64,000 bases of DNA from Haliotis cracherodii. Lineage: Eukaryota. Positions within the stretch are counted from its first letter, which is position 1. Each line of letters starts with the position of its first letter. The notes below the pieces were generated by a model, which did no database searches, was not told where the DNA came from, and saw only the letters and a list, made by a program, of their open reading frames with translations. The stretch lies in assembly GCF_022045235.1 (NCBI RefSeq), contig NW_027266265.1, positions 16,988,001 to 17,052,000 of the forward strand, read 5' to 3'. Positions 8,254 to 64,000 of this stretch are shown piece by piece. The translations under genes and the position numbers were made by a program.

Positions 8254-8381
8254 ATATCATCTGCCAAGATGGATGTTTTTCTGACGAATTGTAAAACACC
8301 CAAATGACCTTTTGGTACCGACTGTCACAAACCAGAGGTTGTGTCATCGATCGAACGACCAAGTGATGAAGCAGGAATGAT

Positions 8382-14255: not shown

Positions 14256-14289
14256 ACGTCTGCGAGCCATTGGTATGCTTGAATATCTT

Positions 14290-21730: not shown

Positions 21731-22878
21731 ACTTCATTGTTAAGTTGTGATTCATGATTATGGCGGTACTATGAGGTTTTTTTGGGTTCATGTTCTATTT
21801 CGGAATGAGACACTGACATTGACAAATAGCAACCTGGGTGTCATAGAGCAGAATATATCATGCTGATGCAAGTACGTTGAGCAAACGCCTTATATCTGCA
21901 TCCCATTATGGTAAAACATATACAGTTCGTTCTAGCTAGAAGGATTTAGTTTCTTGAGAAGATGTATGCAAAGAAAAAACATTGACGAGGCAGAGATGGG
22001 ACAACAGCAGCTCACACATGATTTACTGTTGTGACAGAGGGAAAATGTTTTGCATGTATGCAAAGGTGTTCATCCTGTTTAGCCAGCTTCTTCACGTCAC
22101 ACTGACCCAACGCAGTCGTATAAATGTTTACCCTGAAACTTGTTGGACCAACACACAGTACTCTCACGCTTTGCAGGCTTTATAATGTTAGAGCATTTAC
22201 AGTCCATGAAACAGGTCAGTATGCTGTTGATATGTAAAGGTTTTCACTTGAATCGATATTTATCATTGCTTATTGTTAATCTCTACTGACCATAGAACTA
22301 GTTTGGAGGTATTACATTTATATATTAAAGTTTTGTCTGGACTAGCCGCCGACCACTCGGCAGCTCGAGCAAGTTGTATCTAAATCATTCAAAATCTGCA
22401 TTGTTTTTGTTTGTAAACTGAAATATTATAATACGTATTAACATATTACAGAAAAAAACCAGAGACAATATCTCAGTTCCACACAGTATATTTGCATGAA
22501 GCATAATTATTTTTCATTCCCCACCCCAACCCCAACCCCGAATAACAAATGGTTGACCCCTATTTCAGAAATGAAAACCTGAAGGCTAAAAAATTCTCGT
22601 CTCGTTTTTTATGAGGTATATAATTTTAGATCAGAGGCATTTCAATTGTGAAACATATTTATACTTTTTCGCTTTTCTATACATTTTAGAGTGAAAGGAG
22701 ACGTTACAATCTATGGGTCCTTTAGAAGCGCCTTGCAGCGTTGTCTCGGTGACACCGGCTACTCATATCAACGTTCCCTCTTCTTCACATTAAATGACGA
22801 TTCCGATAACCAAAGGCGAATTGCAGAGATACGGAGACTGTGTTAAAAGGCGGCAGTGAAACAAATAAAGAGTTCACA

Positions 22879-24813
22879 ATGTCATCAGGAATATACTTCA
22901 GGTTTTGGACAATGGTTATGCTTGGTGTGTCATTAGTTGACACTGCATATGGTACAAAACTTATGCCTCTTAAACGTCCCCCCTCTCCTACGTTCAAGAG
23001 AAATATGATCATGCCAGATGAATGGAAGGCAATGTGCAAGACCTCAAGCGACAAAACCAACAAATCATTTATCTCCATATATTGTCATGTGAACGTTGAG
23101 GATGTGTGGGACTTTAATCACTTCCGGAACTGGTCAGTTGTGTTGGATAATGACACCCTAGTGTCGCTGGATATAGTTTGTGAGGATGGAGCAAGAATCT
23201 GTCTTCCCTGGCCGTACAGAGAGGGACATCTGCACACGTTGAGGGTTACCAGGTGCACCAATACTTGCTACTACTCGGACTTCAATCGACCGGAAGTGTT
23301 GGATATCCCAGACTCACTGAGGGTATTTGAAGGTTATGATGTGACAGAGGAGAGGAAACTACTGGATATGTTGTCCATTGACATAAAGAGTTTACCGGCT
23401 CCTATGGTATGTGGCCCAATGCATCTGGAAGTCTTCATCTACAGACACAAGCAGCTTAAAATCCTATTTGACGAAGACAGCGAAGATTACCCACAACTTG
23501 AGGACCTCAACATTACTGACACGATCACGAAGAACACGCGCAATATGGATGATCTTGGTTATGTATGCAAATATGAAAATATGAGAGTCTTTGATAAAAG
23601 TCAACGGATCCGGGCTTCGTCTCTCCTTATCTATTCAAGTGTAGTCAACTCACGATTCCCCCAACTTCGAATACTAAATTTCTCAGATACTGAGTTGCAA
23701 GTATTTCCCCCAATTCTGGCAGTCTGGCGGCGTCACTTCGACAAGCTGCAAATTTTGGACCTTTCTCATAATAACATCTCCCGTTTTGAATTAAGAGATA
23801 CGAGCCTTCTCTCTCAAGATGTTGGAATTATAGATCTCAGGTTTAATGATATACGTAAAATTGGAGAAAAGGAAATTGAATCTTTTTCAAAAGTTGACGG
23901 AGTTGTGATTAATGTGAGAGACAATCCCTTTCAGTGTGACTGTGCTATGGGAAACTTCAGCATGTATCTTCAAAAGTATAGCAGTACAACTGAAGCTGGT
24001 ATAAACAGGGATTATGCATATCTCTGGGACTTAGAATGCGTCACCCCAGAGAAGTTTCGAGGTAAAAGGATCAGCGAGTTCACACGGAAGATATTATGTT
24101 CCACCGATATGACAGCCTACATATCTCAAATATCAGCCATATGTGTAACTGTGGTCATTTTCTTGATTTTCGTGATACTTTGTGTTCGATATAGAAAGGA
24201 AATAAGAATTTTGACTTTTACACGCTGCAACATTATTCTACCATGTCAGTCATTTGAACACTCAAGCAATAAGACATACGATGCTTTTGTGGCCTACAGT
24301 CATATTGATTCAGCGTGGGTTGTGAAGACCCTCCTCCCTCGACTAGAGAGTGGTTCCCCTGACGGAAATAACTTCCGGTTATGTCTTCACCAGCGAGACT
24401 TTGCAGTTGGCGCCGCTATAGCTGACAACATTTGTCAGAGCGTTGAGGCAAGCAGACACACTATCCTGGTGTTGTCTAGGAAGTTTCTGGAGAGCGAGTG
24501 GTGTTTGATGGAGTTCCGCACCGCCTTCCACCAGAGTCTCATTGAGAAGAAGAAACATCTGATTCTGGTCCTCCTTGAGGACATCCCCGTGAGTGAACTT
24601 GACGCGGACTTTCGGCGTTGTATGCAGACATGGACGTACATTCACATATCTGACAAACTTTTTTGGGACAGAATCGTTTATTCATTAACCGACAAAAGTA
24701 AACCGAAAAAGAAGACCTCCATCGCAAAAGACGTACCCACGCCTGGAAACAATGCTGAGAACATCGACGTTAAGATCTGTAGAAAGCCCCCAGAACAGTA
24801 TGACCTTTGTTAA
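22879..24813 (+). CDS. Toll-like receptor B
   Basis: First ATG (MSSGIYF...) in ORF 22840-24813. Signal-like leader, LRRs, NPFQCDC LRR-CT, TM and TIR. Candidate upstream intron 22215-22689 (CAG|GTCAGT ... TTTTAG|). Confidence 0.95.
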   Translation: MSSGIYFRFWTMVMLGVSLVDTAYGTKLMPLKRPPSPTFKRNMIMPDEWKAMCKTSSDKTNKSFISIYCHVNVEDVWDFNHFRNWSVVLDNDTLVSLDIVCEDGARICLPWPYREGHLHTLRVTRCTNTCYYSDFNRPEVLDIPDSLRVFEGYDVTEERKLLDMLSIDIKSLPAPMVCGPMHLEVFIYRHKQLKILFDEDSEDYPQLEDLNITDTITKNTRNMDDLGYVCKYENMRVFDKSQRIRASSLLIYSSVVNSRFPQLRILNFSDTELQVFPPILAVWRRHFDKLQILDLSHNNISRFELRDTSLLSQDVGIIDLRFNDIRKIGEKEIESFSKVDGVVINVRDNPFQCDCAMGNFSMYLQKYSSTTEAGINRDYAYLWDLECVTPEKFRGKRISEFTRKILCSTDMTAYISQISAICVTVVIFLIFVILCVRYRKEIRILTFTRCNIILPCQSFEHSSNKTYDAFVAYSHIDSAWVVKTLLPRLESGSPDGNNFRLCLHQRDFAVGAAIADNICQSVEASRHTILVLSRKFLESEWCLMEFRTAFHQSLIEKKKHLILVLLEDIPVSELDADFRRCMQTWTYIHISDKLFWDRIVYSLTDKSKPKKKTSIAKDVPTPGNNAENIDVKICRKPPEQYDLC

Positions 24814-25061: not shown

Positions 25062-25340
25062 TCCAAGGACAAAGGGTCAGCGGATTTGTAACAATGTAAA
25101 AATAATATATTCGTTGATCACTATACATAGTTGTACAATATAAATGACTGTTATCATCACGATTATATTGGCCTTTGTGTGTCTTTAACGTTATCCCTAA
25201 TTGTCCAAGGACAAAGGGTCAGCGGATTTGTAGCAATGTAAAAATAATATATTCGTTGATCACTATACATAGTTGTACAATATAAATGACTGTTATCATC
25301 ACGATTATATTGGCATTTGTGTGTCTTTAACGTTATCCCT
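25062..25340. repeat. ~137-bp tandem duplication downstream of TLR-B (offset 142 bp)
   Basis: TCCAAGGACAAAGGGTCAGCGG...GTTATCCCT occurs twice. Confidence 0.9.
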
Positions 25341-27450
25341 TATTTAACTTTTTTTCATGCGGAACATCAAGCCATTTGTTTTTATGTATTTTCAAAACTT
25401 GCTTATTACAAAAGAAAGCAGTATTGGGATTGAGTCCACGAAGGTGATGTAACCGTAACCATGGCAGCACCTGGCAAATTTAACTTTGGTTAATTCAAAT
25501 GTACTAGGATCAAGCGAAGCTTAAATATAACCAGCGCTACGACACAAAATTGCCCTTTTTATATGTAAATCCTATATACCAATATTCTTTGTATAAGCTT
25601 GTCAAAATAAACATTATCTGTAGCTATTTTAGGTTCTTGATTGGACAATAACCTCCGAGCCACGACCATTCACGTATGAGATACACTATGAGTGTCGAGT
25701 TTTAATGAGCTATGCTAAACGCTGCTTTGAAAATATTCTGTTCTAAACCAGCAAAAGAAACTATACCTCTCAGTTGATTTTATCATATGTTTGATTTTCA
25801 ACTGAAAATATCTTAAGTTAGTGATCTTATATAAAAGATATGAACTTTACTGGCGCTACGTCAGCACTCAAAAAATATCTCTATATGGTTTTATTTTTTT
25901 TAAATAATCTGATTTAACACGTTTAAATTTTTTTTTAAAATACACAAGTGCTGATGGGTATCTTATAAATCTTATCTTTGAAAATAAATAAATTTGCATT
26001 TTATAGCACAAATGTACATCATTTCAAACATGGCAGAGGTCATGTGGTTGCACATTCATTTCTTACCCCAGTCTTTATTGAACCAATCTATTGTGACACA
26101 TATTTAACTGTTGCAGGGATGGGTGGTTAAACAGACATCATCTAACTCAGGAACAATTTTTTTTCAAATACATAAAAAACAAAATCGGTATACTTTCTTT
26201 TGCTCCTGCGTGCAGCGTAATGTGAGCGGAAAGACCAGTGTGACGTATGTTGCAGATTTAACAAACAAGCACGGATAGCTCAGATGAAGGAGCGTAATGG
26301 CGGATGGGCTAATATGGGATTCAAACGTAGAAACTACATCCTGTTCTATTACATGTGTAGGCAAAGAGCCCGTAAAATGACACACATAGACATCTGCTTG
26401 TGCAATAGCATACGTATAAACGACAACAGACTGAGCAATGACACAAAACACAACTGATTGTGCTACGACACATGTACTAGACTGTACAATGATACACGTC
26501 CACCGTAGTCAGTAGGCAGCCAGGGGAAAAGAGGCTATTTAAGATTTTCGTTTCCATTTTTTCCTGTATACCTAAACGTTTTTCTAATGCATGAGGGACG
26601 CATCTGCTTACGATTTCCAATGGGCAGTAAGCTTGCAAGTGTGTGCGTGAATTTTCAGGAGGTATAAATTGCATAAATTGACGGGAAAATGCATAATTTG
26701 ACAAAATTGCCTGTAACATTTTTATTAAGTCATGAAACTATCCAAATTATGTATTTTTATTATAGGTAATATTTTCGGTTATCTGAATTTTGCAAACATG
26801 ACGTGTGTACCTATTACTTCTTTCTCTGACTTATTACATTGTCATGTCTGTAGATGCGATACAAATTTAGATGCAAGCCACAAGAAAATATATATGTTTA
26901 AAGGGCGGAATGACAGGAGTGCTGCTGTTCTGTGTCAGGCAACAAACATTTACATTTTTTAATGCAACTTGTGTTAGTAGCGGTGCTACCTGTACCGGAA
27001 GGGCAGACATGCTTACCCTTTTCGCGAACACCTGGTGTCATCATTGATTTTCAGTGATCCATTCATATACTTTTCACCGATAGTTTGCTTTTACGCCCAA
27101 TGGATTCTGTCTCGTCGGAAAATCGAGACTGGATATATTATCTAGCGTTGACGTTTTATATTTTTAAAACCAAACCAACGATATATTTTAAGGGAATGCG
27201 CGGGTTACATATTAATAGGAGCGACAAAACCCTTTCCATATTCATGATAAATCTCTGCAAAAAGAAGAGTCCATTGTACGATTCCGACTTATTGGTTCAA
27301 ACACATTAACCATTTTATTGCTGTGACTTTTAATAGGGTGACCGCAACTAATTCCAAAGGAGAGACATTTACATTTAAAAAGTAATGATTGTTCATTAAA
27401 AACACACTTGTTGGACACAATTTGTGTAGCAAATGCGATTTAAGTGCTTT

Positions 27451-31980: not shown

Positions 31981-32951
31981 ACACGTACACTCAACATTGT
32001 CAAGAGATACTGAAAAGAAATTAATACTTGTTCAGTGACGGGCGGTGTTTCTATGCCTTAGAAAACATCTACATAGTAGATGTTATTTAACAGTCCAACT
32101 GAAGCAAGAAGTGAATTGCTGCTGTGCAGTACTAACTGCCGTGTCATATCCGTATACATATAGGGAAACCTACTGACGGTGTTAACAGTTTTGAATCAAA
32201 TAACACAATTAATAGTATTTAACTTTATTAGATAAGGATTTTAACCACATATGGATAAAACGTTCATCTTCAAGTAAACATAGTATGATATTTGTTTTGA
32301 AAAATGCGCATTTTCTTATTTCCCTATATTTCTAACGTACAGCCACGTGCAAGTTATGCCCCCATGAAAAACACGAAGTCACACGGGGTAACAATGCAGC
32401 AACATCATAGATGAATGAATGTAATTATGTTTGCGTTAAGCAATACAGGATCGATTTTAAAATCGGGAATAATTAAATTTTGTATGATATAACGACGTGT
32501 GACTTTTAGTCCATTAGTCTCGGCTGAATTGTTTTATATTACAACTTCAAATATATCCTAAAATGACCCCTTATACACAACAGTACCCAGTGCCCAGCGC
32601 AAAGAATGTCATGCCTACAGAGATCCTTAAGTAAAGGTCATCTGTATTCTGCATCTCAAGTCACCATGCCCCAGTTCTTGGCGATGTGAGCTTTACATCA
32701 ACTTTGTTTCATTATTTATTATTTCCTTTCTTTACAAAGACATGTTGTCTTTTTTCGAACGCAGGATCTGCCCCGACAATGCTACAATCAATTCACTATG
32801 GACTGATGTTGGCATGCAATGCAATGCTTAACAATTTTATTTTTATACAGTTTAGAGTGCACGAGTGGCCCAGTCGTCAAAGGCGCTGCGATTCGTTGTG
32901 AAGAGTTGCGTCCCTTAGGCGTGCCAGAAACCTAAGATGATGGGTTCGAGT
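31981..32951 (+). repeat. Arm 1 of an inverted segmental duplication (partner 40625-41505)
   Basis: Reverse-complement match by eye; ORFs 32686-32901(+) and 40674-40889(-) are homologous. Confidence 0.9.
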
Positions 32952-37702: not shown

Positions 37703-37752
37703 ATATCCTTCCATAAAAGAGGCGTTTGCTGCTGTGAGGACAGGTGTCAGCG

Positions 37753-39393
37753 ATGTCGATCCATTCCTTCCATTTACTCTTCATTGTTTTAGTGACACAC
37801 TCAACCAGTGGATATCCGAACAGTAGTATCCCTTTGGAGTGGTCAAACATTTGTCAATCCGCCATTAACCTTTCAAACGTAGTCATTTCCTGTCACGTGG
37901 GTGTTGACGATACATGGGATTTAGATCACTTCCGGAACTGGTCAGCCCTATTGGATAATGACACTCTTGTGTCTCTGGACGTAATGTGTGAAACTGGAGC
38001 CAGTATCTGTCTCCCTTGGCCGTACCGAGCCAGACATCTGGACACTTTGAAGATCAGGAATTGCATCAACACTTACTCCTTCTTTGACTTCCACCGACGG
38101 GAAGTGCTGGATATCCCTGACTCCCTGAGGGTGTTTGAAGGATATGGTATGACGGAACAGTTTAACGTTATGAATGTTTGGGTGTGTGGACAGAAGTCCT
38201 TAGAGGTATTCATCTACAGGAACACCAAGGTAGATTTGAAAAACAAAATTTACCTATTCGCAGGTTCCTATAGAAATTTGAAGGTCATCGATATTAGTCA
38301 AGAACCAAAAACATCTATGGGCGCGCAAATTGACCGTCTTTCAATTTTTGTTTGGATGCCTCAACTTAGAAATTTGAATATGTCAGGCATAGGATTGCAG
38401 GTGTATCCATCGATGTTGAAACCGTGGAGAACCTCATTTCCCAAACTAGAAATTGTGGACCTCTCCCACAACAATATTTCCCATTTTGACATAGAGATAA
38501 CGTCTCCTTCCCAAGATGATGTTGGCCTTATAGATCTACGGTTTAACAATATACAGACCATAGGCGTCCATGAAATAATCTCCTTTTCACATTATAAAAG
38601 AGTTTTTATTGACATGAGAGGCAACCCATTTAGATGTGATTGTGCTATGGCAAACTTGAATGACTTTCTTCAGAAAAACACCAACAAAGACTTAAGTAAT
38701 ATGAACTATCTTTACGATTTGAAATGTGTTACCCCTCAAAGGTTTCGAGGAAAAGCGATCAGAGACCTTTCAAAAGAGTTGTTGTGTTCCACGGATACGA
38801 CTGCCTATGTCGCTCAGATATCAGTCCTGTGTGTTATCGTTATCATTTTGATAATCACTATTATTGTAACGACAAGATATAGGAAGGAGATAACCATTCT
38901 TGCTTTCACGCGTTTCAATATTCTTCTTCCATCTCAACCGATCGGAAAGTCAAGCAATAAGACATACGATGCTTTTGTGGCCTACAGTCACCATGACACC
39001 GAATGGGTTGTGAAAACCCTTCTCCCTCGACTAGAGAGTGGATCCCCTGACGGAAATAACTTCCGGTTATGTCTTCACCAGCGAGACTTTGCAGTTGGCG
39101 CCGCTATAGCTGACAACATTTGTCAGAGCGTTGAGGCAAGCAGACACACTATCCTGGTGTTGTCTCGGAAGTTTCTGGAGAGCGAGTGGTGTTTGATGGA
39201 GTTCCGCACTGCCTTCCACCAGAGTCTCATTGAGAAGAAGAAACATCTGATTCTGGTCCTCCTTGAGGACATCCCCGTGAGTGAACTTGACGCGGACTTT
39301 CGGCGTTGTATGCAGACAAGGACGTACATTCACATCTCTGACAAACTTTTTTGGGACAGAATCGTTTATTCATTAACCGACAAAAGTAATTAA
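37753..39393 (+). CDS. Toll-like receptor C (shortened ectodomain, no post-TIR tail)
   Basis: ATG at 37753 (MSIHSFHLLFIVLV signal), LRRs, GNPFRCDC, TM nearly identical to TLR-A, and a complete TIR ending SLTDKSN*. Confidence 0.93.
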   Translation: MSIHSFHLLFIVLVTHSTSGYPNSSIPLEWSNICQSAINLSNVVISCHVGVDDTWDLDHFRNWSALLDNDTLVSLDVMCETGASICLPWPYRARHLDTLKIRNCINTYSFFDFHRREVLDIPDSLRVFEGYGMTEQFNVMNVWVCGQKSLEVFIYRNTKVDLKNKIYLFAGSYRNLKVIDISQEPKTSMGAQIDRLSIFVWMPQLRNLNMSGIGLQVYPSMLKPWRTSFPKLEIVDLSHNNISHFDIEITSPSQDDVGLIDLRFNNIQTIGVHEIISFSHYKRVFIDMRGNPFRCDCAMANLNDFLQKNTNKDLSNMNYLYDLKCVTPQRFRGKAIRDLSKELLCSTDTTAYVAQISVLCVIVIILIITIIVTTRYRKEITILAFTRFNILLPSQPIGKSSNKTYDAFVAYSHHDTEWVVKTLLPRLESGSPDGNNFRLCLHQRDFAVGAAIADNICQSVEASRHTILVLSRKFLESEWCLMEFRTAFHQSLIEKKKHLILVLLEDIPVSELDADFRRCMQTRTYIHISDKLFWDRIVYSLTDKSN

Positions 39394-40624: not shown

Positions 40625-40626
<2 letters not shown>

Positions 40627-41502
40627 TCGAACCCATCATCTTAGGTTTCTGCACGCCTAAGGGACGCAACTCTTCACAACGAATCGTAGCGCCTTTGACG
40701 ACTGGGCCTCTCGTGCACTCTAAACTGTTTAAAAATAACATTGTTATGCATTGCATTGCATGCCAACATCAGTCCACGGTTAATTGATTGTAGCATTGTC
40801 GGGGCAGATCCTGCGTTCGGAAAAAGACAATATGTCTTTGTATAAAACGGAAATAATAAATAATGAAACAAAGTTAATGTAAAGCTCACAACGCCAAGAA
40901 CTGGGGCATGATGACTTGAGATGCAGAATACAGATGACCTTTACTTAAGGATCTCTGTAGGCATGACATTCTTTGCGCTGGGCACTGGGTACTGTCGTGA
41001 ACAATTCAGCCGAGACTCATGGACTAATAGTCACACGTCGTTATATCATACAAAATGTATTTATTCCCGATTTAAAATCGATCCTGTATTGCTTAACGCA
41101 AACATGTATTACATTCCGTCATCTATGATGTCGCTGCATTGTTACCCCGTGTGAGTTCATGTTTTTCATGGGGGCATAACTTGCACGTGGCTGTACGTTA
41201 GAAATATAGAGAAGTAAGAAAATGCGTGTGACTAAAATATGTGGTTAAAATCCTTATCTAATAAAGTTAAATACTATTAATTGTTATATTTGATTCAAAA
41301 CTGTTAACACCGTCAGTAGGTTTCCCTATATGTATACGGATATGACACGGCAGTTAGTATTGCACAGCAGCAATTCATTTCTTATTTCAGTTGGACTATT
41401 AGATAACGTCTACACGATGTTTTATAAGGCCTAGAAACACCGCCCGTCACTGAATAAGTATTAATTTCTTTTCAGTATCTCTTGACAATGTTGTGTTTAC
41501 GT

Positions 41503-41505
<3 letters not shown>
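40625..41505 (-). repeat. Arm 2 of the inverted segmental duplication
   Basis: Reverse complement of 31981-32951 with internal deletions; both ends abut (GA)n tracts. Confidence 0.9.
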
Positions 41506-42720: not shown

Positions 42721-44103
42721 CTAGAGTTTCTCCTGGGTAGATTTTGAGGATTCGTCTTTGTGTCGTCCATCATTGATGTTTTGTTCGTTGATGGGGGACC
42801 GGCCACACAGGATTCGGCAGCTTCGGGAGATGAGCAATTTAACGTTCTCTCTGTAAAGGATGCTTAATAAGAGTGAAGCGACCAAAATGACAACAACAAC
42901 AGCTAAAACAGCGACGAAGGCTTGGTAGGACGCCACATCCACGACATCAAGGTTGCAAAGCGCTTTCCTTGAGAATTGACTAATTTGTTTTCCTCTTTTA
43001 CTGACTGGATCAACGCACGTGAGATCCCAAAGATATTCGTAGTCAAGACTCAGACCTGCATCTTCTGGCGTCGGATGTCTTCTGAGAAAGTTACTGAAGT
43101 CGGCCATAGCGCAGTCGCATCTCAGGGGATTTTGTCTCACGTCCACAACTTGTGCAACGGAAGACTGAAACGATCCGATCTCGGCCTCTTTTATTGTTTG
43201 AATGGAGTTGTACGTTAAGTTGATAACTCTGATTGGTGCGTCAAAACTTTGAACACCCCCTCTGAGGTCAAAACGGGAGATGTTATTATGGGACAGATCC
43301 AAAATTTGTAGTTTTTCAATGCGTCCTTTCCATGATAATAAAATAGAAGGGAACGCCTGTATCTCCGTGGAAGAGTAGTTTAGTGTTGTCAGGTTGGGGA
43401 AGCGAGAGTTGATGAAAGTGGCGTATATACCTGCAGACGATGAGTCTTGTCTCTGACTCGCGTCATAGACCTTCATATTTCTATAGTTACACACGTGTTT
43501 AAGTTTGTTTATATCCCGCGCTGTTTGTACGAAATTGTTAGTAACCTCGTCTTCCCCTTTCGGCACAAAACTTTTGGGGTAAATTATGTCAGCCTTGGTG
43601 TTCCTGTAGATGAATACCTCTAAGGACATCGGTCCACACTCCAATGCAGGAGGGAGACTCTTCAGGTCGACAGACAACATATCCATAACGTTAAACTGTT
43701 CAGTCACACCATATCCTTCAAACACCCTCAGGGAGTCAGGGATATCCAGCACTTCCCGTCGGTGGAAGTTCGAGAAGAAGCACGTGTTGATGCAATTCCT
43801 GATCTTCAAAGTGTCCAGATGTCTGGCTCGGTACGGCCAGGGGAGACAGGCACTGGCTCCAGTTTCACACATAACATCCAGAGACACAAGGGTGTCATTA
43901 TCCAATAGGGCTGACCAGTTCCGGAAGTGATCTAAATCCCATGTATCGTCAACACCCACGTGACAGGAAATGACTACGTTTGAAAGGTTAATGGCGGATT
44001 GACAAATGTTTGACCACTCCAAAGGGATACTACTGTTCGGATATCCACTGGTTGTATGCGTCACTAAAACAATGAAGAGCAAATGGAAGGAATGGATCGA
44101 CAT
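42721..44103 (-). CDS. TIR-less TLR paralog D (LRR ectodomain, TM, ~44-aa tail)
   Basis: Intact 460-aa ORF from ATG 44103. N-terminus nearly identical to TLR-C, LQILDLSHNNI, QNPLRCDC LRR-CT, TM AFVAVLAVVVVILVASLLLSILY, no TIR. Acceptor TTTTCAG|ATAT at 44177. Confidence 0.88.
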   Translation of the reverse strand: MSIHSFHLLFIVLVTHTTSGYPNSSIPLEWSNICQSAINLSNVVISCHVGVDDTWDLDHFRNWSALLDNDTLVSLDVMCETGASACLPWPYRARHLDTLKIRNCINTCFFSNFHRREVLDIPDSLRVFEGYGVTEQFNVMDMLSVDLKSLPPALECGPMSLEVFIYRNTKADIIYPKSFVPKGEDEVTNNFVQTARDINKLKHVCNYRNMKVYDASQRQDSSSAGIYATFINSRFPNLTTLNYSSTEIQAFPSILLSWKGRIEKLQILDLSHNNISRFDLRGGVQSFDAPIRVINLTYNSIQTIKEAEIGSFQSSVAQVVDVRQNPLRCDCAMADFSNFLRRHPTPEDAGLSLDYEYLWDLTCVDPVSKRGKQISQFSRKALCNLDVVDVASYQAFVAVLAVVVVILVASLLLSILYRENVKLLISRSCRILCGRSPINEQNINDGRHKDESSKSTQEKL

Positions 44104-44904
44104 CGCTGACAATGTGTTCTTTCACGTTCCGATGGCTCCGATCTCACTGTTGCTTACACCTCTTTTGGGGAAATATCTGAAAATATAAGATAACCATGAA
44201 AGTTGTTGGAGTATATCAATGGCAGTCACAAAACATTATTTACAGTCTGTCGTCATATAGCTGGAATTTTCCTAGGTGCAAACAACTAAACCCACAGACA
44301 CACAAATAAAAGGCTAAGTGATTCAGTTAATTTAAACTAACACTTTCTCATTGAACTGAAATGCTAAGTATGAAAAATCAAACTCCTTGTTTTCAAAACA
44401 ACTACACGAAGTATGGAAGAAAAGTGATGATGTTTCCGTTATAAAATAATGGAATGATTTCCTTCATACAGCTTCCATATGTACATAAAGGTTATGACGC
44501 CAGTGTGTTTTGGGAAGGTAACTACCCATCCGTTCGCCCGCCAGAGAAATTGCCTTTTATCAAAGGGAAGCTACTCTAGTCTATGATATCTCACGTTTGT
44601 TTCGTCTGCTTGCCATTACATTATCATAACGTTACGAAATGCAGTCAGATGTCCCAAACTGCGACAAAAAGAAACGAAGGAATTTCGGATATATTTCGGC
44701 CAAATCCGACGTTATTTAATTCGGGAGGACGCCCCAAGGCGCAGTTTTCTATCAGCACGGATATGGAAAGTGATCCCGCTTGCGTCCCCGTTCAATGGCT
44801 TCCCCAATCATCCAATGTTGCCAATGCTTGTTAAAGGCCTAAGGTACGTCCCTGGTAGACATTGATTTTCGGCATCTTTGACTATTGTTCTAATGATGAT
44901 AATA

Positions 44905-50925: not shown

Positions 50926-52423
50926 TCTTTATCTCGTCCTTACTGTTGTCTCTCTCATCGACATCGCAACTACAACCAGGCAACGTCCAAAGTAAGACCA
51001 CATAAGCCTGTTGACAACAGGAATGGCGATCCAGCCTTCAACTATCATAACAAGAAGGCAGTATTTCAATAACTGGATTATCTCATTCAGACCTCATTAT
51101 TAACAGGCCCTCATCATATATATGGGATATTTCTAAATAAACAAACAAACTAACTAACAAATGGTATGTCATAAAATTGAGTGTACCATGGCCACGACAT
51201 TGTATTTTAAAGACGCTTCAGGCGAATTTAAAGTTGATATTTTGCAACGCTCGTCCTTATTTGTTTTGTTTGTTTGTTGTTTAACGCCGAACTCAGCAAT
51301 AGTCAAGCTATATGACGGCGGTCTGACATCATGGTCATCGATCTACGTAATTGGGATACGACACGACGCATCAACCAAATTAGTCCGTTCCCGTTAGTCG
51401 CTTCTGACGACAAGCATTTAGGAGTGGGTTGTTCTAGCTGAAGTACTGTCGGAAAGGCTAGAAGAATGCTTTTTGCCCGTTAAAACAAGATAGAATGTTT
51501 GACAAACTGTTGCTATTGGAATATCAAGTAACTACCGATGTACCTACGTGTGGTTTGAACAATTTCAGTCACAAGGAGTCCTATCGACAATTTTGCACAT
51601 TTCGAACGAAAAAAGCAACTTCACTTCACAAGTCCAATGAGGGAAGTCTGAAACGCAAATAGAAATACGCGCACGTGACCCCGTTAACATAATCATAATT
51701 ATCATAATCATAATAATGATTAATCATTCTGGATGTGCATCTTAGAAATAACAAAATCACGCTGCATGCGTTATTAACTTATCTACTTGTAGTAGAAGTC
51801 GGGAGGTAATTAATGTTCCCCAGACGACATTATATTTACCTCTCCTCTTTATGGGATTTCGATACACAATTCATGTGGCGCTGACCGAGCAGTTTTCAGG
51901 AGAAAATATTGCATCATGCCAATGAGGTCACATTATCTCCACGCAAGTCATGACGATCTTGCAGGTTCATAATAAAAACATGCTGTTTCAGCTCAGAAAA
52001 AAATGCCAATATAATGAGTGAGTGAGTTTGGTACACCACTTTGATCAATGTTTTAATTATATCACGGAATAGCAACTTGATGTGGGAAGAAAGTTCAAAG
52101 GGACGTTAAACCAAACTCACTCACTCACTCACTCACTCACTCACTCACTCACTCACTCACTCACTCACTCACTATTCAGAATATAAGCTGCAGAATAGTT
52201 TTGATGCAATCCAAAACGTATTGAAGAGCAAATAATGTTTAGTCTCACTGTCTATCAGTTTTATGACACTGCGTCTTTGCTTTGTAGAGTTACCTCCCTT
52301 AGTTGTCCGCTTAGGATCCGCATATAGAGAGTTATAATTTCATATTTGCCCTAACTGTGATCCTTTGACTCAGTATTATACACATCAAAGTGCAAACATC
52401 TACGGATTTAGTTCAACGTTAAA

Positions 52424-53110
52424 TTGACACGCCATGAAATAACGAAAATACTACCCAACAATAAAATTCAAGTCAGGAATGTCAAGGAGGACCTGGTTAC
52501 AAAGGAAATAACCATAAATCTCATTGAAAAGATGGATCTAGGAAAGAACATCAGTGACCAGTGTCATGAAAAGTTGTCTGAAGTTATTTTCAAACATTAC
52601 AACACTTTTAGCTCACGCGATGAAGGCATTGGATTTTGCGATGCAGTTCAGCACAAGATCGTAACCCTGGATGAAATCCCAGTCAAGGCCCCTCATAGAC
52701 GGATTCCACCCGAGCAATGGGAAGAAGTCCGGGAATATATCGGAAAAGCACTAGTTAATTGCATCATAAGGGAATCTTTAAGTCCTTATGCATCACCAGC
52801 GGTCCTGGTCCGCAAGAGTAATGGAAAGCTGAGGAATAGCTGTGACTACAGAGCTTTAAATGCGAAGACACGCAAAGATGCCTATCCTCTGCCCAGGATT
52901 GATGAAGCATTAGATGTTTTGACGGGTACTTTTGCATCCTGGACCCGGGGCGTGGTTTCAACTAGATTCCAGTTGCTGAGGGAGACATCGAAAAGACTTG
53001 CCTTCAGGATAGGTACTGGCGGACTTTATGAATATACCAGGATGCCCTTTGGTCTAACCGGTGCACAAGCAACATTCATGCGCCCCATGGACAAGATCTT
53101 CAGTATAAAT
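52424..53110 (+). mobile_element. Ty3/Gypsy pol (reverse transcriptase) fragment, degenerate
   Basis: IIRESLSPYASPAVLVRK, DYRALNAKTRKDAYPLPRIDEALD and YEYTRMPFGL. An internal frame disturbance is present and the fragment ends before YxDD. Confidence 0.9.
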
Positions 53111-53547
53111 AAAATACATGGACCCAGAGAACGACTTTGTCCAGCTTTTACACCTACAAAACATGTGTTAGTTTCGGATATTCAGAAGTAAACGACTGTG
53201 TTTGAATGAAGGTGCAACAGGGAAGCCCTTTCAAAAGGAGAGTTACCGCACTTTGGGACACAAATACCACCAATTAATGCCTTCAGTGAGATTGAAACAT
53301 TCTGACTATTTGTGGCTGAAACAAATTTTGTTTGAATGGCTGGAGTTATAATTGGCTGGACTGTCAGTTTGCTCGAGTTTAGTGCCCCTTTAAGCGCTCG
53401 TTTTCCGCTACCAAACAAACCAGGCCAAATCAATGATGCCTTCATTACGTTAACGGGTCATTGCAGCTCGCGCAGTTCCGTGGCTATGACTTGATACCGA
53501 GTCGACATACTTATCATCTGTTTGAGTCGGCCTACATTGTGTACAGC

Positions 53548-53647
53548 ATGGCGGACAAGACAACTCCTTACTTTGACACTATCGTCGTCGGATGCGGAGG
53601 AATCGGTAGCGCAGCAGTATTTTGGTTGTCAAAGACATCATCCTCAG
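53548..53647 (+). CDS. Exon 1 of a monomeric sarcosine oxidase / SolA-like FAD-dependent oxidoreductase
   Basis: MADKTTPYFDTIVVGCGGIGSAAVFWLSK contains the GxGxxG Rossmann motif; phase-1 donor CAG|GTATG at 53648. Confidence 0.85.
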
Positions 53648-55367: not shown

Positions 55368-55434
55368 TTTTGGGTTTGGAACAGTTTGAACTTGGACATG
55401 AGAGAGGCGGTTCACAGGATGTTTCTCGAGTTAT
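55368..55434 (+). CDS. Exon 2 of the sarcosine-oxidase-like gene
   Basis: ATTTCAG| ... |GTGAGT. Spliced in phase to exon 1 it reads VLGLEQFELGHERGGSQDVSRV(I), the family motif that follows the Rossmann helix. Confidence 0.85.
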
Positions 55435-55753: not shown

Positions 55754-57010
55754 CAGACAGACAGACTGACAGTTTATTCAGTAATTTTGGCAACAGGGCC
55801 CATAGTACAATGCAGATTGGATATTAACATTTGTCACGTGATGTACATGATTAGATTTTAAATCAAGTTACACATTCCTCATTATAAAGACATGTTTTAA
55901 GAATACAGAAACAGCATGGATCATATCAGGATTTTCAGAGTTTAGCAGATTTATCATTAACTGACGGTCTTTAAAAATACCTTGCAACATGGGGAAATTG
56001 GAATACGTTTTACATATAAGTAAGACATGGTATTTATCCTCTACTTCTCCGGATGAACAGTTTGTACAAACTGAGTTCACAATATCTTGAGAAATCCATA
56101 CATATCAAAAGCCACTAACAAATAATAGATTTCTCACATCTGAAACCAAATTATTTTTTTCCATTATCATCAAGCCCCTTTAACATTTTGTAACACTGAT
56201 ATGGGTATCTATCAGGCATCATTCTAAGTAACTTAATCCAATACTTAATTACCCTTAATTGGCTGGCTACAAAAAAATTACAACGGCCTGTTTCACCAAG
56301 GATTGCCTTGTTTGAGACAAACTTACCAACACGTAAAAAACATTTGAAATATGAAGTGTGAACTTTTTCAATTGCAGTATAATACTTAGCACCCCATATT
56401 TCAGAACCACACAAAAGTATAGGCATAATTTTGCCTTCTTAAATCGTACATGCGGTGAAAAAGATACACGACTATTTTTCCTGAATAAATTATAAAGAGG
56501 CATAATGGTTTTCAACGCTTATTGCTTACATGCCATAGACCATGACAAGCTAGAGGAAAACATAAGTCCTAAATATTTATAGTAAATGACTCCACTCAAG
56601 GCAGACGAACCAAGAAACCACTTAACATGTTTTGCAACAATACCACCTTTTCTAAAAACTACAACATTGGTTTTATTCAGATTTACTTCGAGGCTCCATT
56701 TTGAACAGTACCTCTGTAACACAGTTGACTGTTTTTGCAAGCCATTTACAGAATAAGAAATAGCACATCACAAGCAAAGAGAAGGAGCATAATGTCCATT
56801 ATTTCTTGTATTACCAATATCCTATGTTGAGAACTATTTTGCAGCTCTATAGTAAGTTCATTTATGAATAAATATAACAACAACGGACTTAAAACACAAC
56901 CTTGTCGTACACCGGAGGATGTTGTAAAGCAGTCCGTACGTTCATTATTGACCTTTATACATGCGCTGACTGATGCATACATGTACAGACATTTTACCAT
57001 GACCTTGCTT
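55754..57010 (-). mobile_element. Degenerate 5'-truncated LINE (RT, C-terminal Cys/His motif, (TCTG)n tail)
   Basis: GVRQGCVLSPLL, YKYLG, CGSEIWG and CTNC...VEDKYHVLLIC across several minus-strand ORFs; AATAAA precedes the tail. Confidence 0.88.
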
Positions 57011-57034: not shown

Positions 57035-57900
57035 GGGGGTGCGTCGACTACAAGGTGATGGACGAGCAATTGGCATGCTTGAAATTGGTAGAATTCATCG
57101 AGAAGTAGCGAACATGTTCAATGTGTCTCAGTCTGTAATTTGCAGACTTTGGATTGGATGGGGATGGGGATGATTGGCCCCGCACAGGGCGCCATAGGTC
57201 CATTAATGAAGGCTTACAAAATCGAGACCAAACAGCCAATCAAATCGCTTTTCACTTGTGCCAGACCACCGGACGCCAATTGTGTTTAGAGCGTAGAGTG
57301 ACAGAGGCCGTCAAAAGTCAGCAACAAGTCCAGGATGGATTAATCAGAAACCAGGCTTTAAGAAATCGAGCCGAATCAGCCAATCAAATCGCTGTTTAAT
57401 TGCGCTAGGCCACCAGAATCCAAGTTGTAGACCAGACAATTAGAAATGGTTTGCATGCACCTAATCAACAGCTCGTCAACGTAAGACAACATGAGAGAAT
57501 TGGGGGTGTATCTGTAATGATCTTGGGCGGGATCACTATGACTTCCAGAACGCCACTGCATATTGTCCATAGATAGGTCGCTTGACAGTTCTACTGAGGC
57601 AACATACTGGCGCCAAAAGTGGTGCCGTTTGCACGATAAACAGGTCCACCTTTTGTCTCCCAATACGACAATGCTCGTGCCCACCGTGCAGTATCGTAAC
57701 TGACTATCTCCAGCAGCAAAACATCACCAGAATGCAAAGGCCAGATCTCCCAGTCCTGACTTTTCCCAAACAGAGCACATCTGGGACATCCGTTTCGTTA
57801 GCCGAACTAAAGTGGATAAGAGTCCCTCTAATTTTCATTGGGAGAGATTGATTCGGACCATGCCACGCCCTACAAACGAACTTGTGACCAATCGTGGGAC
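57035..57900 (+). mobile_element. Highly degenerate Tc1 transposase
   Basis: RAIGMLEIGR..REVANMFNVSQSVICRLW (HTH) and QYDNARAHRA. Confidence 0.7.
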
Positions 57901-58954
57901 ATTACCCATAACTGATCAAGTCATCTCAAACGTTTTGTTTTTACTATACACCTGTCGTCTTTCTTGGTTGTTTGCACCCTCACAACACACCGCCAACATC
58001 CATTACCATCACTCGAGACGTCTTTGTATTTCTGTAACCATCTGTTTTTCTCGAACATACCCTACTTATTTGAAAGTAAGTTCCGACTTTGGTGGGAGGG
58101 TAGCCATAAAGATAAAAAAAAATAATTTGAAAGCAACCAATGCGACTGGGTATGCTTGAAGGCAAACAACTGAACCAAACCAGGTCATTTTGATTATAAC
58201 AAAATAGAGCCAAGGAGATTTTGACAGTCAGCGAATCGGAATCGAGAAAAAGTGATATAATTTGAAGGAAACAAATCAGAGCCAGTATACACGTCTAACT
58301 TAAACGAACTGCCCACTCAGTCAAATTATGGCCATAACTAAAGGTAGTCATCAAGTTGTAGGAAATGGCTGCATTATCTGAAGTAACACGGGCATTAATG
58401 AGCCACATAGTTCACTTTCCAACACAAGTCAGTACAAAATCTCGATTGGAGGCATGTAGCAAAAACATTTTGAGTAGGCAGTGTAGTATCCTGTGTTTTT
58501 CTGATTCCTTCAACCTAATCGTTTGTAAAAGGAGCGCTCGATGTTCACCTTGACCTCTCAGACCTCTTCACAGTGGACGTCGCGGTTCCTGATTGGGAGT
58601 TAAAACCGTTATTTGGTGTATATCCTCCCTGAAAATCAATACAGCGGACTTAACGGCTAATTTGACACTCCTTTCCACCCGGAACCGAAAATATACCTTG
58701 TCGTAACAGTCGAACAGTAGAAAATCATGATTCATTCCGTAAACCTATTCAGACGACCATGAGATGCGAATATATCAGGATAACAATGTAGAGCTGTCAC
58801 AAACCACATTGTTCCACAAATAAAATACATATTTTACCATGAATCAGTACAAAGGTATTAATGTGCGAACAGATGTTTTACTGTAAATGCAATGTTGAGA
58901 ATAATTGGTTTATTATGTTTTATTTATAGTCGCCATGGTTACCACGATGAAACA

Positions 58955-59702
58955 TACAGTCGCCTCATCCCTCATGCCTACAGCGCGTAAGTTACATGTG
59001 TTCTTTAATTCAATAATCACAGGTTTGTGGAGATTGTATACAAAACAAGCATGGACCAATTATCTGGAATTGAAACTTGCAACAAGAAGGATTTCGCAAC
59101 ACCCACGAGTGAGTCAGAATTTAGGGTCACATATGAACTATTGCAGCAATTTCCTTGTTCAAAGAAGTCACGTCGGCATCATTTCGAATTCAAAGAAAAT
59201 GTGACCAATAAATGTATTATAGTTGTGTTAGATAAAAACTGTGGTCAAAGGAAACAAAATAACGTGTAACATATCACATATTTGTATTTAAATGTAGTAT
59301 GAAAACATTAAAACAACAAACTATTTTACCACGATACAATACAAACCTTCCTTTCAAAATAGAGATTTATGACAATGATGAGTATGAATCTGAGGCCGTT
59401 TAGAAACGACAAGAAGCTCTATTTGTTTGCAAGGATTATTGTTTTTAGAGATCCTATCAAAACATTACTGACTTCCCCGTACCCTGACATCAAGTGATGA
59501 ACTATTGTATACATTATTGTTATGAGGGAAGGGATGTTTGTCACTCTTCTGGCATGTTTTTTCGACCTCGAATCTAACTTCAAACTACTGGCACATGGGC
59601 AGGCACAAAGCACTTCAACTGGTAGTCGTGTCAGTACCTTCATTGCCCGTGACATAAACAGTGTACAATATCAAGACACGACTGTATTTCAGTTTGCAAG
59701 GC
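58955..59702 (+). repeat. 748-bp direct repeat, left copy (flanks the LINE)
   Basis: No mismatch seen against 63124-63871; ORF pairs are identical at offset 4169. Confidence 0.95.
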
Positions 59703-62700
59703 TAACCAGCGAGGATGTAGAGGGGAAGGCGGTGTGGCAATTTTAGTTAAGAAAAATATGTACAGGTACACTGATATATGTGAATGTGAGTATGATAGTG
59801 TTGTAGCTGTGAGACTCTCCCGTCCCCAGTGTGCTGATATGTATGTAGTGTGTGCTCTGCTCCCCTCCACTAATCACAACACAGCAGTGTATGAGGAGAG
59901 TGTCAAGGAAGTGTTCGACGTGGTTGATGAGCTATCAGAAAGCAGTTATGTTGTTCTTTGTGGAGATTTTAATACAGATCTTGTAAATTACCCAGCATCC
60001 CCTCGCTCCACTGTACTGCAGTCATACTTGGATACAAGAAACATGATACCATCATACAACTGTGGTGTCACTCTAGGTCGTCTCAAGACATGGTGCAACA
60101 AGGCTGGAACACAGTCATCTCTGATTGATTATATTTTCTTGCCAGATGCTCTTCAATCATCTGTGCTGACGACCTCTGTCAATAACAACATCGATTTCGA
60201 GATATCGGATCATTCACCAGTAGTGGTATCATTCCTTAGCGATGCGTTCTTAACAGAGCAAAAGCTATGGACTCCCCCAACTTACAAATGGCAGAAGGCG
60301 AATGGCCTTGAACTGAAGATGTACTCATCTGAAGTTAACAAAATACTTGGGGACACCCTTCCAGACGTGACACATGCTGACAGCGATATGGTGGAATATT
60401 ACTTTGATGCTATAGTGAGCTCTCTCCACACGTCAACAGCAATGTACATCCCAACAGGATCATACAGACCATACCTTCGGCCCTATTGGAGAGGATCTAG
60501 TCTAGACTACTACCACTACCAGATGCGTCATGCTAGACGACAATGGATATCTCAAGGTAAACCTAGAGGAGATGCACATGGCTCTTATAAACAGTATAAA
60601 GCAGCTAAATGCAACTTCCGTCGACAGAAAAGAAAAGCCGAACGGCAATGGGACAGACACAAGTATACAGAGCTGAACTCTGCCTGTGAAGTGGACATTG
60701 GTGAATTTTATAGAACTGTCAGGAGACAGAGGAAGACTAATGTAACGTGTACATCTCTACAGTATAAAGACAAGACGGCCAGCACACCCGAAGACATCTG
60801 CAATATGTGGACTGATTACTACGGAGATCTGCTGTCTCCTCTCGATAGGCCTGAGTTTGAAACGGACTTTTATGAGGAAACAAAATCAAAGGTTTGTGAT
60901 ATAGCAAACAGTAACATATCTGAGAACGATCCAATCCTGGCGACAAGTATTGCATCTAATGAAGTGAAATCAACCATTAAGAGGCTGAAAAAGAATAAGT
61001 CTCCTGGACCAGACTGTATTACTGTAGAACACCTCTGTAATGCTGACAATCTTCTGTTTAAACATCTGGCACACCTCTACAATATGATGATCAGTACTTG
61101 TTACACGCCTGTCATGATGAGAACTGGAACTATTATTCCCATCTACAAAGGGAATAATAAAGATAAATGCAACCCAGCTAATTATCGCGGTATCACTCTA
61201 ACATCTGTGATTGGGAAGGTATTTGAGAGGCTGTTGCTAGACAGACTGGAGTCCTACATCAAATCTATTAATCCTGATTTCCCACATCGTCTCCAATGCG
61301 GCTTCCGGAAAGAGCATGGCGCCAGTGTTGCTACATTTGTGTTAAAAGAGGCTATTTCTTATTATCAAGATAGACACTCAAATATATATGTTGCCTTTCT
61401 GGATAACGAAAAGGCCTTCAACAGGATATGGCATGAGGGGCTGCTACTGAAACTATACAATCTTGGTGTGAAAGGCCGTGCATGGCACATTATCCGTCAA
61501 TCTTACCAAGAAGCAAGTGCTTGTGTTAAATACAATGGGAGCACAGGTGATTTGTTCAATGTTCAACAAGGAGTAGGACAAGGTCGCGTGCTCTCAGCAT
61601 GGATGTTTCTAGTCTATATCAATGACCTGATATCCCAGCTTGATAATCTACAATGTGGACTAATTGTTGGTAAGGAGCACATCCCAACGGTAGTACTGGC
61701 TGATGACACTACTGTTGTGAGTACGAGTGTACATGGACTGAATATGTCTCTTGATACTATCCACCAGTATGCTCGGCGCTGGAGACTGACATATAACGCC
61801 AATAAGAGCTGTGTCTTGTCTTTTTGCAATAACAGAAGACATTGTAATAGACCTGTGTTCAGAATTGGAGATGTGACAATGAAGATCCAAAGCAGTACGA
61901 TTTATGCCGGCTCTCTGATACACACGGAAAAAGCAAGTGAACGAACTGCTAAGGCGCGACAGACAATCAACTCCTTAAGAAATGTTGGTCTTAGAGCTGG
62001 AGGATTGAGCCCAGTATCTTCATCGAATATCTGGCAACGAGTGATCTTCCCCACTGCCTTCTATACATGTGAGCTCTGGCCTAATATCAACAACCGTGAG
62101 ATCAGTGAGATGGAAACCCTACAGCGCTACTTTGCACGACGAGTCCAAAACCTTCACAGGAGATCCTCTACAGCTGCTACAACCCAGGTTCTAGGATTGT
62201 GGTCAATGCTGGGCAAGGTGGAGAAAATGAAGCTTCTCTTTCTGGGAAGACTCTGTAGAGCAGCAGGCACAACCATTGTGAAGCCGATTTTCTATCTCAG
62301 ACTATCCCAGTATGTCACCACGATCTCACACAGTGCCAGATCCATAACACATGATCTACTGAATGTGGCTCAAAAGTATGGATTCTCAGGCGTCTTAGAT
62401 AAACTAATCAACTCTGGGGAATTTCCATCTAAGAGTGTATGGAAGAGCATGGTACAACGAGCTATTAGTGAGTCTGAAAATATGAATTGGAGAAATACTT
62501 TGCAACAACGTCCAGACATGCATAGGTTTAGTGCTATCCACACCCGCCTTGCCCCACATCGTCTCTGGTCTCTGTGTATATGGTATGATATTACTCCCCC
62601 CCCCTGTATATGCTCTTGTAAAGCTCGGCATATTACCTGTAACGTCTGGACTATGTCTTATCTGTAACAGTGAATGTGATGACATTGTTAAGCACCAATT

Positions 62701-63123
62701 GCTTTACTGTGATGGCCTAATGAAACAGAGAAATGTGCTTAGTGAGTCTCTATTTGACAATGTTAGCCTTGAAACATATCTCAGACTTGAGGACACGTCT
62801 AGTGATGCCGTCAAGATTCTGACATACCTCGGTGCTATTACAGATGTGGTCCAGGACATGACACTTGACAGCTGGGCAACATTCATGAGTATCGTGGCTA
62901 AACATGTCAGCTCATGGAACTTAACATCCATATTGTATTTGTGAAGCTATGTCACACATCATGTAAATAGAGTTTCACGCATCACTTCATTACTGCTTAC
63001 CCAGCTCAACCTGTTGTATTCACATGTATTTTGTCATTGCCGTTGTCAAATAATGTAATGTAATTGTATGTACTACTCTCCAAATCATTGGGGGAAATAA
63101 AGAGTATTCATTCATTCATTCAT
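59703..63123 (+). mobile_element. Young 5'-truncated non-LTR retrotransposon (APE endonuclease + RT; RTE/RTEX-like, clade uncertain)
   Basis: ORF 59734-62667 has GGVAILV, GDFN, IDYI, SDH, KSPGPD, NYRGITL, QCGFR, GVGQG and LADD. A frameshift near the C9 run (~62596-62604) continues into CLIC...H...C (to 62944). AATAAA and an (ATTC)n tail end the element. Confidence 0.95.
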
Positions 63124-63871
63124 TACAGTCGCCTCATCCCTCATGCCTACAGCGCGTAAGTTACATGTGTTCTTTAATTCAATAATCACAGGTTTGTGGA
63201 GATTGTATACAAAACAAGCATGGACCAATTATCTGGAATTGAAACTTGCAACAAGAAGGATTTCGCAACACCCACGAGTGAGTCAGAATTTAGGGTCACA
63301 TATGAACTATTGCAGCAATTTCCTTGTTCAAAGAAGTCACGTCGGCATCATTTCGAATTCAAAGAAAATGTGACCAATAAATGTATTATAGTTGTGTTAG
63401 ATAAAAACTGTGGTCAAAGGAAACAAAATAACGTGTAACATATCACATATTTGTATTTAAATGTAGTATGAAAACATTAAAACAACAAACTATTTTACCA
63501 CGATACAATACAAACCTTCCTTTCAAAATAGAGATTTATGACAATGATGAGTATGAATCTGAGGCCGTTTAGAAACGACAAGAAGCTCTATTTGTTTGCA
63601 AGGATTATTGTTTTTAGAGATCCTATCAAAACATTACTGACTTCCCCGTACCCTGACATCAAGTGATGAACTATTGTATACATTATTGTTATGAGGGAAG
63701 GGATGTTTGTCACTCTTCTGGCATGTTTTTTCGACCTCGAATCTAACTTCAAACTACTGGCACATGGGCAGGCACAAAGCACTTCAACTGGTAGTCGTGT
63801 CAGTACCTTCATTGCCCGTGACATAAACAGTGTACAATATCAAGACACGACTGTATTTCAGTTTGCAAGGC
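63124..63871 (+). repeat. 748-bp direct repeat, right copy
   Basis: Starts immediately after the (ATTC)n tail and ends at GTTTGCAAGGC. Confidence 0.95.
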
Positions 63872-64000
63872 ATATAAGAGATATGTGTACACGTTGCTTA
63901 CGAACTTTTTTGCAATATTTTTGAATATTTTGCAAGTAATGTTAAGCTCTAAAGTAAGTCCCACAAAGCAAGTATACAATTTCTTCTTTGAACATTTATA

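Follow-up and report, generated by a model that had tools for sequence, protein, structure and literature searches.

How does a retrotransposon come to stand between two identical copies of a host sequence about 750 bp long? This question is raised by a 64,000-nt stretch of the genome of Haliotis cracherodii (contig NW_027266265.1, positions 16,988,001 to 17,052,000), hereafter called the window, in which a 5'-truncated long interspersed nuclear element (LINE) lies within a gene resembling sarcosine oxidases and is bracketed by a 748-bp direct repeat. Our analysis suggests, with a probability that we put at roughly 0.8, that this arrangement is a long target-site duplication (TSD) made by a single recent insertion, in which target-primed reverse transcription was completed ~745 bases away from the first nick.

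Pairwise comparison within the window showed that positions 58955-59702 and 63124-63871 are identical at 748 of 748 bases and that the match is maximal, breaking on both sides exactly at these limits, as a preliminary description of this DNA, made from the sequence alone, had stated. Once tandem arrays had been masked, the list of the window's 30 longest direct matches contained no other long direct repeat with 100% identity. No third copy of the unit is present in the window, and the 3421 bases that separate the two copies are found nowhere else in it. The left copy abuts codons of the LINE endonuclease and the right copy comes straight after the (ATTC)4 ATT tail of the element, in agreement with the earlier reading of both junctions.

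The origin of the repeated unit was examined by comparing the region 58100-63170 with 4 of 21 sequencing runs, three of which were represented by contigs (X1; X5, from a separate study; and X7, which bears a different species label) and one by raw reads (X18). Contig 1 of X1 (2069 nt) matches 58100-59702 with no other letters and no gaps, and then continues with the first 30 letters of the right flank (63872 onward). It thus carries the empty allele that the preliminary description had predicted, namely a single copy of the unit followed by ATATAAGAG. Read depth in X1 is flat, at 6.9, across the flank and the unit. Contig 10 of X5 covers 58813-59702, crosses both breakpoints and continues for 407 letters that do not fit the LINE, and contig 17 of X7, which extends over 58129-59701 and differs there by 58 substitutions and an insert of 165 bases, likewise crosses both breakpoints and continues for 541 such letters (the letters of these two extensions were not displayed). 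These empty-site contigs show that the unit is single-copy host DNA that predates the split of the two species labels.

The LINE contigs provided the complementary view. In all three contig sets, they fit the window from 59698 and have identical letters, different from those of the window, upstream of this point. Because these other copies of the LINE have a different upstream sequence and share with the unit only AAGGC (59698-59702), which forms the last five bases of the left copy and is at the same time part of the LINE itself, we conclude that the unit is host DNA and that the 5' joint bears a microhomology. The computed chance of a 5-bp microhomology at this joint is 0.001-0.006. At the 3' joint, the first base of the unit, a T, could equally belong to the tail. 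Given AAGGC and this shared T, the true length of the duplication is 742-748 bp.

These comparisons also bear on the idea that the 748 bases are a part of the element (a terminal repeat, a 5' region or a 3' transduction) that travels with it, to which we assign an almost negligible chance. The unit's final 26 bases can be read in the frame of the second open reading frame (ORF2) of the LINE and resemble one relative (HDC..V.K, P0002). They were considered as LINE sequence and rejected, as the LINE contigs differ upstream of 59698, and the resemblance to the relative is attributed to chance. Beyond the five shared bases, the true upstream sequence of the LINE differs from the unit in three runs; the unit is found at flank-level depth, runs without a break into both flanks in the empty alleles, which represent two species labels, and includes part of a host exon; the right copy is not followed by a tail; and no joint from the LINE end back to the unit was listed in the run comparison. 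The proposal in the preliminary description that the insertion had duplicated host DNA around the LINE is therefore supported by the empty allele and by the failure of the unit to accompany other LINE copies.

The inserted sequence itself has the organization of an apurinic-type endonuclease (APE) LINE: the endonuclease precedes the reverse transcriptase, a repeat tail is present at one joint and a 5' truncation at the other, and the flanking repeat is host DNA rather than a long terminal repeat. Its reading frame extends over 59653-62667, the element portion beginning at 59703, and the ORF2 stop codon is at 62942-62944. Of 481 homologues of this ORF, the best is 53% identical over the whole query, and several are from bivalves. 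In an alignment with eight full-length relatives, which have both an endonuclease and a reverse transcriptase, the window copy was found to be without ~60-75 N-terminal residues of ORF2 and everything upstream, and also to be short of four residues near 61946. The Pfam matches to the endonuclease are weak because the domain is truncated. No PD-(D/E)xK-like pattern of a restriction-like endonuclease (RLE) occurs in the 77 residues after the CCHC knuckle of the window copy, nor was a Pfam match to such an enzyme obtained; 9 of 11 relatives had a detected knuckle, and one loose match to the pattern was found among these. A hairpin at the 3' end of the LINE is no more stable than those of shuffled sequences (z = 0.25 and 0.68).

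With regard to its affiliation, the LINE carries the motif GQGRV. In an alignment from PMC10294476 (here and below, published work is represented by excerpts of the papers cited), all four entries carrying this motif are labelled Proto2, of the RTE superfamily, and three of the four have the RepeatMasker type RTE-X. The LINE is therefore likely to belong to the Proto2/RTE-X clade, a label based on motif sharing with these bivalve LINEs, for which the excerpted passages give no TSD lengths. The family looks young, to judge from sequence comparison: the window copy and the X1 contigs differ at 13 of 3030 bases over six listed pieces, and the depth of the LINE is ~10-16 times that of the flank, which is a rough guide rather than a copy number. 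As a separate observation, in six listed pieces that total 2598 bases the X7 LINE contigs show 22 differences (0.8%) from the window copy (59698-62568), against ~3.7% plus indels for the host flank in the same run (58129-59701). This low divergence of the LINE relative to the flank could be due to constraint on an active lineage, to introgression or to horizontal transfer.

The host gene was recognized from three exons (Table 1). The peptide encoded by exon 2, GHERGGSQDVSR, is identical in the homologue of Haliotis rufescens, and the score of exon 3 against its exon-specific hidden Markov model (HMM) was attained by none of 50 shuffled sequences. No HMM match to exon 4 was obtained in the window, and this exon is located outside it. 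The left breakpoint (58954/58955) falls within exon 3, 25 bases from its start. This corrects the preliminary description, which had not recognized exon 3 and had placed the insertion in intron 2. In our gene model, the left copy of the unit preserves exon 3 and its donor whole, so that the LINE sits in the predicted intron 3, in the orientation of the gene. Since the remainder of exon 3 is duplicated together with the donor, we predict that the LINE is spliced out with intron 3 and that the gene is spliced normally; interference may come from the AATAAA signals of the LINE (61156, 63096) or from the second donor (63156), if it is used cryptically. A short TSD at the same site would have broken exon 3. 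Two further candidates, a putative exon 4 at 59023 and an extra exon at the end of the unit that would reach into the right flank, were rejected, as they had no HMM support and 90 of 100 shuffled sequences scored equally. Older elements are also present in and near the gene. Intron 2 contains fragments at 56151-57009 (minus strand) and 57040-57851, and a decayed reverse-transcriptase fragment with a weak match to PF00078 is located just 5' of the gene (52412-53191, plus strand); we take the latter to be Gypsy-like. The two intronic fragments, together with those at 14283-14825 and 19883-20853, are presumably remnants of old LINEs and Tc1-like transposase genes. These assignments are based on sequence motifs.

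Table 1. Features of the oxidase-like gene, the LINE and the duplicated unit in the window
Feature	Position	Strand	Evidence
Exon 1 of host gene, similar to sarcosine oxidase (flavin adenine dinucleotide-dependent oxidase)	53548..53647	+	searches with animal homologues by tblastn and HMM (PF01266; 36.7 bits); exon followed by a GT donor
Exon 2, same gene	55368..55434	+	70-78% identical to homologues from molluscs; HMM 32.9 bits; phase agrees with that of exon 1; AG/GT ends
Exon 3 (57 nt), same gene	58930..58986	+	58% identity over 19 aa to homologue P0127; exon-specific HMM 13.4 bits; pyrimidine-rich AG, GTAAGT, correct phase
Left copy of host unit: last 32 nt of exon 3, donor, 716 nt of intron 3	58955..59702	+	identity, single-copy depth, continuity in empty allele
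Microhomology AAGGC between end of host unit and truncation point of LINE	59698..59702	+	LINE contigs of X1, X5 and X7
5'-truncated non-LTR retrotransposon (LINE), likely Proto2/RTE-X lineage	59703..63123	+	homologues, alignment, motif-sharing bivalve relatives
Apurinic-type endonuclease domain, N-terminal part missing	59722..60213	+	PF03372 (E 5e-4) and PF14529 (E 2e-3), both under curated cut-off; GDFN and SDH motifs
Reverse-transcriptase domain	61165..61821	+	PF00078 (E 5e-26)
Run of 9 C with frame shift, parting reverse-transcriptase frame from C-terminal part	62596..62604	+	X5 and X7 contigs one base shorter here
C-terminal CCHC zinc knuckle	62654..62710	+	pattern search in window copy and 11 relatives
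AATAAA and (ATTC)4 ATT tail; last T common to right copy	63096..63124	+	sequence
Right copy of unit: half of exon 3 (63124-63155), donor at 63156, without acceptor, then intron 3	63124..63871	+	748/748 identity, splice-site inspection
Right flank, continuation of intron 3	63872..64000	+	first 30 letters directly after 59702 in X1 empty-allele contig

Under the established model of target-primed reverse transcription, the site of the first nick is found at the 3' joint, and synthesis of the second strand starts at the 5' joint. Applied to this locus, the model would run as follows. The endonuclease of the element would have nicked the bottom strand at 58954/58955, within exon 3, and the freed 3' end would have primed synthesis at the (ATTC)n tail. 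Reverse transcription would have halted after 3.42 kb, within the endonuclease region. Through AAGGC, the end of the cDNA would have annealed to the top strand ~745 bases downstream, where host repair or replication had most likely generated a 3' end. Fill-in synthesis would then have copied the intervening stretch, leaving the unit on both sides of the LINE. The preliminary description had likewise proposed that the second strand was cut or repaired ~750 bp from the first nick; the repeat, the empty allele, the microhomology and the position in exon 3 are observed, whereas the order of events, the origin of the distant end and the splicing can be stated only conditionally. We favour a distant end made by the host over one that the element itself cut at a set distance, given that it possesses a single endonuclease and that the sporadic large TSDs of other APE-type LINEs depend on the host cell (PMC4245944, PMC5223499). 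A distant second nick (via unwinding, PMC5223499) and break-induced copying (10.1101/2024.12.14.628481) would leave the same product at this locus. The joints of 5'-truncated LINEs often show microhomology (PMC4245944).

An alternative with the same end product is that the repair of a double-strand break or a stalled fork produced a tandem duplication, into the joint of which the LINE RNA was reverse-transcribed without a first cut by the element. Endonuclease-independent inserts often come without the 3' end, whereas the 3' end of this LINE is complete, with AATAAA and tail, as in an ordinary target-primed insertion. Break-induced replication has been proposed for duplications of 1-10 kb at L1 sites (10.1101/2024.12.14.628481), and no target preference of the LINE family could be shown. 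Overall, we consider this alternative improbable.

The sequence flank-unit-LINE-unit-flank would also be exactly the product of unequal recombination between two insertions of the same family located 748 bases apart on homologous chromosomes, and such an event could account for a LINE copy with mixed variants. Judging from the depth given above, copies of the family are few, and the chance of such a pair within 1 kb is 1e-4 to 2e-3 if 15-40 copies in a genome of 1-2 Gb are assumed. Furthermore, no remnant of a short TSD is visible at either joint, neither of the two single-insertion alleles was listed in the runs, and one of the parents would have been a disruptive exon insertion. We regard this explanation as highly improbable.

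Several observations weigh against a target-primed insertion at this locus and have to be set beside the evidence for it. Neither of the filled junctions was found in any of the four runs. This was a weak test, because the region of the 3' junction (63099-63170) was skipped as a repeat, contigs drop rare variants, and the raw run X18 had a depth near 0 on the flank, 97% of its placed reads continuing unlike the window stretch. The filled allele is thus known from the window alone, with a small probability of misassembly. At 1603 of 1603 bases, X1 agrees with the haplotype of the window, yet it does not have the LINE, which fits a very recent insertion and fits an artefact as well. In addition, the LINE copy departs from the majority letter at 14 displayed sites (13 codons, 6 silent; 40 of 173 rows displayed), whereas the two 748-bp copies depart from each other at none. 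If the differences in the LINE had arisen after the insertion, 5-6 differences between the units would be expected, and the computed probability of finding zero is 0.002-0.008. At four of the sites (61620, 62065, 62593 and 62596), minority contigs of at least one run share the letter of the window, which makes the donor copy the more likely source of the differences; the other reading is that the copies of the unit were made alike in assembly. Two further reservations concern the scope of the interpretation. The dependence of the event on the element's endonuclease is presumed, few other 3' joints of the family having been displayed, and the gene model covers exons 1-3, exon 4 onward being beyond the window.

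These points bear most directly on the possibility of an assembly or library artefact, in which the unit was written twice around the LINE when reads or contigs were joined. The perfect identity of the units, when the LINE copy next to them departs from the family majority at 14 or more sites, the failure to find filled junctions in runs that include an empty X1 with the window's haplotype, and a gap of 164 N elsewhere in the window are all consistent with it. However, both joints bear marks of retrotransposition, one being located exactly at the tail and the other at a truncation with a 5-bp microhomology. Even for an artefact, both joints would have to be present in reads, and there is no N near the locus. 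We therefore consider an artefact unlikely and return to the target-primed insertion as the preferred explanation.

Is such a long TSD exceptional? The preliminary description had set this case against TSDs of a few to a few tens of bp as the usual outcome of target-primed reverse transcription, which overstates the rarity of longer ones: duplications of hundreds to thousands of bases have been documented for several LINEs (PMC2666801, PMC5223499, PMC9977147). The zebrafish LINE ZfL2-2 generated a 1228-bp TSD in 1 of 25 insertions in chicken cells (PMC2666801). In HeLa cells, TSDs of >100 bp accompany up to 10% of L1 events, and the proportion is 57-91% in cells deficient in nucleotide excision repair (PMC5223499). 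Duplications of 1-10 kb at L1 sites have been regarded as large TSDs (10.1101/2024.12.14.628481), and retroviral TSDs reach 250 bp (PMC5488345). The large TSDs of human L1 and ZfL2-2 in cultured cells and tumours have been ascribed to a distant second nick or to break-induced replication (PMC2666801, PMC5223499, PMC4245944, 10.1101/2024.12.14.628481), and it has been suggested that large TSDs could duplicate exons and be lost by recombination (PMC5223499). As far as the excerpts go, these sporadic cases share with the window LINE the APE type, the 5' truncation, the microhomology at the 5' joint and a duplication of hundreds to thousands of bases. They differ from it in being engineered or somatic, whereas the window case is an endogenous one in an invertebrate, is polymorphic with respect to an empty allele and has its first breakpoint in a coding exon.

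Habitual long duplications are described for Dualen-4b_cRei of Chlamydomonas reinhardtii, in which 13 of 25 new insertions had long target duplications with a median of 915 bp; other Dualen families in ancestor assemblies likewise show long duplications (PMC9977147). The window LINE resembles Dualen-4b_cRei in being flanked by target duplications of similar size. The cause proposed for the habit of Dualen is its possession of both APE and RLE endonucleases, whereas the window LINE, an animal element known here from one site, has an APE domain and no RLE-like motif and falls outside the Dualen clade, which is marked by the presence of both enzymes. The R9 element uses a restriction-like endonuclease. 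In the rotifer Adineta vaga, R9 has a TSD of 126 bp (as cited in PMC9977147). It is thus another non-LTR element with an unusually long TSD, although its TSD is six times shorter than that of the window LINE and R9 is specific to ribosomal DNA.

In the literature searched, outside which lay most subscription papers and Repbase, no report was found of long TSDs in Proto2/RTE-X or molluscan LINEs, or of an exon rescued by a LINE TSD; PMC11203168, PMC10249811 and 10.1101/522623 yielded nothing of relevance. The window event is a known kind of outcome in a lineage for which no report was found, with a predicted exon-sparing consequence that the preliminary description had overlooked. A scan of metagenomes with an alignment recovered 51 loci of distant relatives, of which 3 had repeat copies >800 bases apart; a long repeat flanking the element was found at none of the 51, most of the contigs being too short to hold both flanks. 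A scan with the single LINE protein found no relative. One repeat of 554 bp (locus L004, 3005-3558 and 4302-4855; 99.8% identical) was considered as a TSD and rejected, as it lies inside a related LINE ORF at a contig end and is probably an effect of assembly.

A broader proposal would be that a Proto2/RTE-X-like family, active in this mollusc and its sister species, habitually makes duplications of several hundred bases with an APE only, and that insertions into exons can survive because exon and donor are rebuilt upstream and a spare half-exon is left downstream. We put this forward tentatively and consider it doubtful. If the habit did exist, it would be the first animal counterpart of the behaviour of Dualen in the literature searched, and two endonucleases would not be needed for it. 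Should the family act in this way often, local duplications in molluscs would arise from it, and the joining of the second strand of a LINE insertion could be studied on it as a test case. As a single event, the locus offers, together with its empty allele, a clear case from nature of an outcome known mostly from cell culture and tumours. It illustrates how a long TSD can convert a hit in an exon into an intronic insertion, and recombination between its identical flanks could remove the LINE precisely. Such sites would escape standard TSD finders, which look for duplications of under ~50 bp.

The remainder of the window contains other duplicated sequences. Four related single-frame genes of the Toll-like-receptor type are located at 8370-10412, 22810-24810 and 37738-39390 on the plus strand and at 42724-44121 on the minus strand. 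Three encode leucine-rich repeats (LRRs) and a Toll/interleukin-1 receptor (TIR) domain, and the inverted fourth encodes LRRs without a TIR match; their identity is 76-86% over the longest matching stretches. An inverted repeat of ~1 kb with 86% identity (31981-32951 and 40625-41504) brackets the third of these genes. Two fresh head-to-tail duplications were found at 7824-8057 and 25062-25344, with copies of 119 and 142 bp, respectively, that are ~98% identical and separated by 0-3 bases. A tandem array of a 28-bp unit occupies 4.7 kb (2059-6724; 166 copies), and further arrays have units of 18, 26, 34, 40, 59 and 107 bp.

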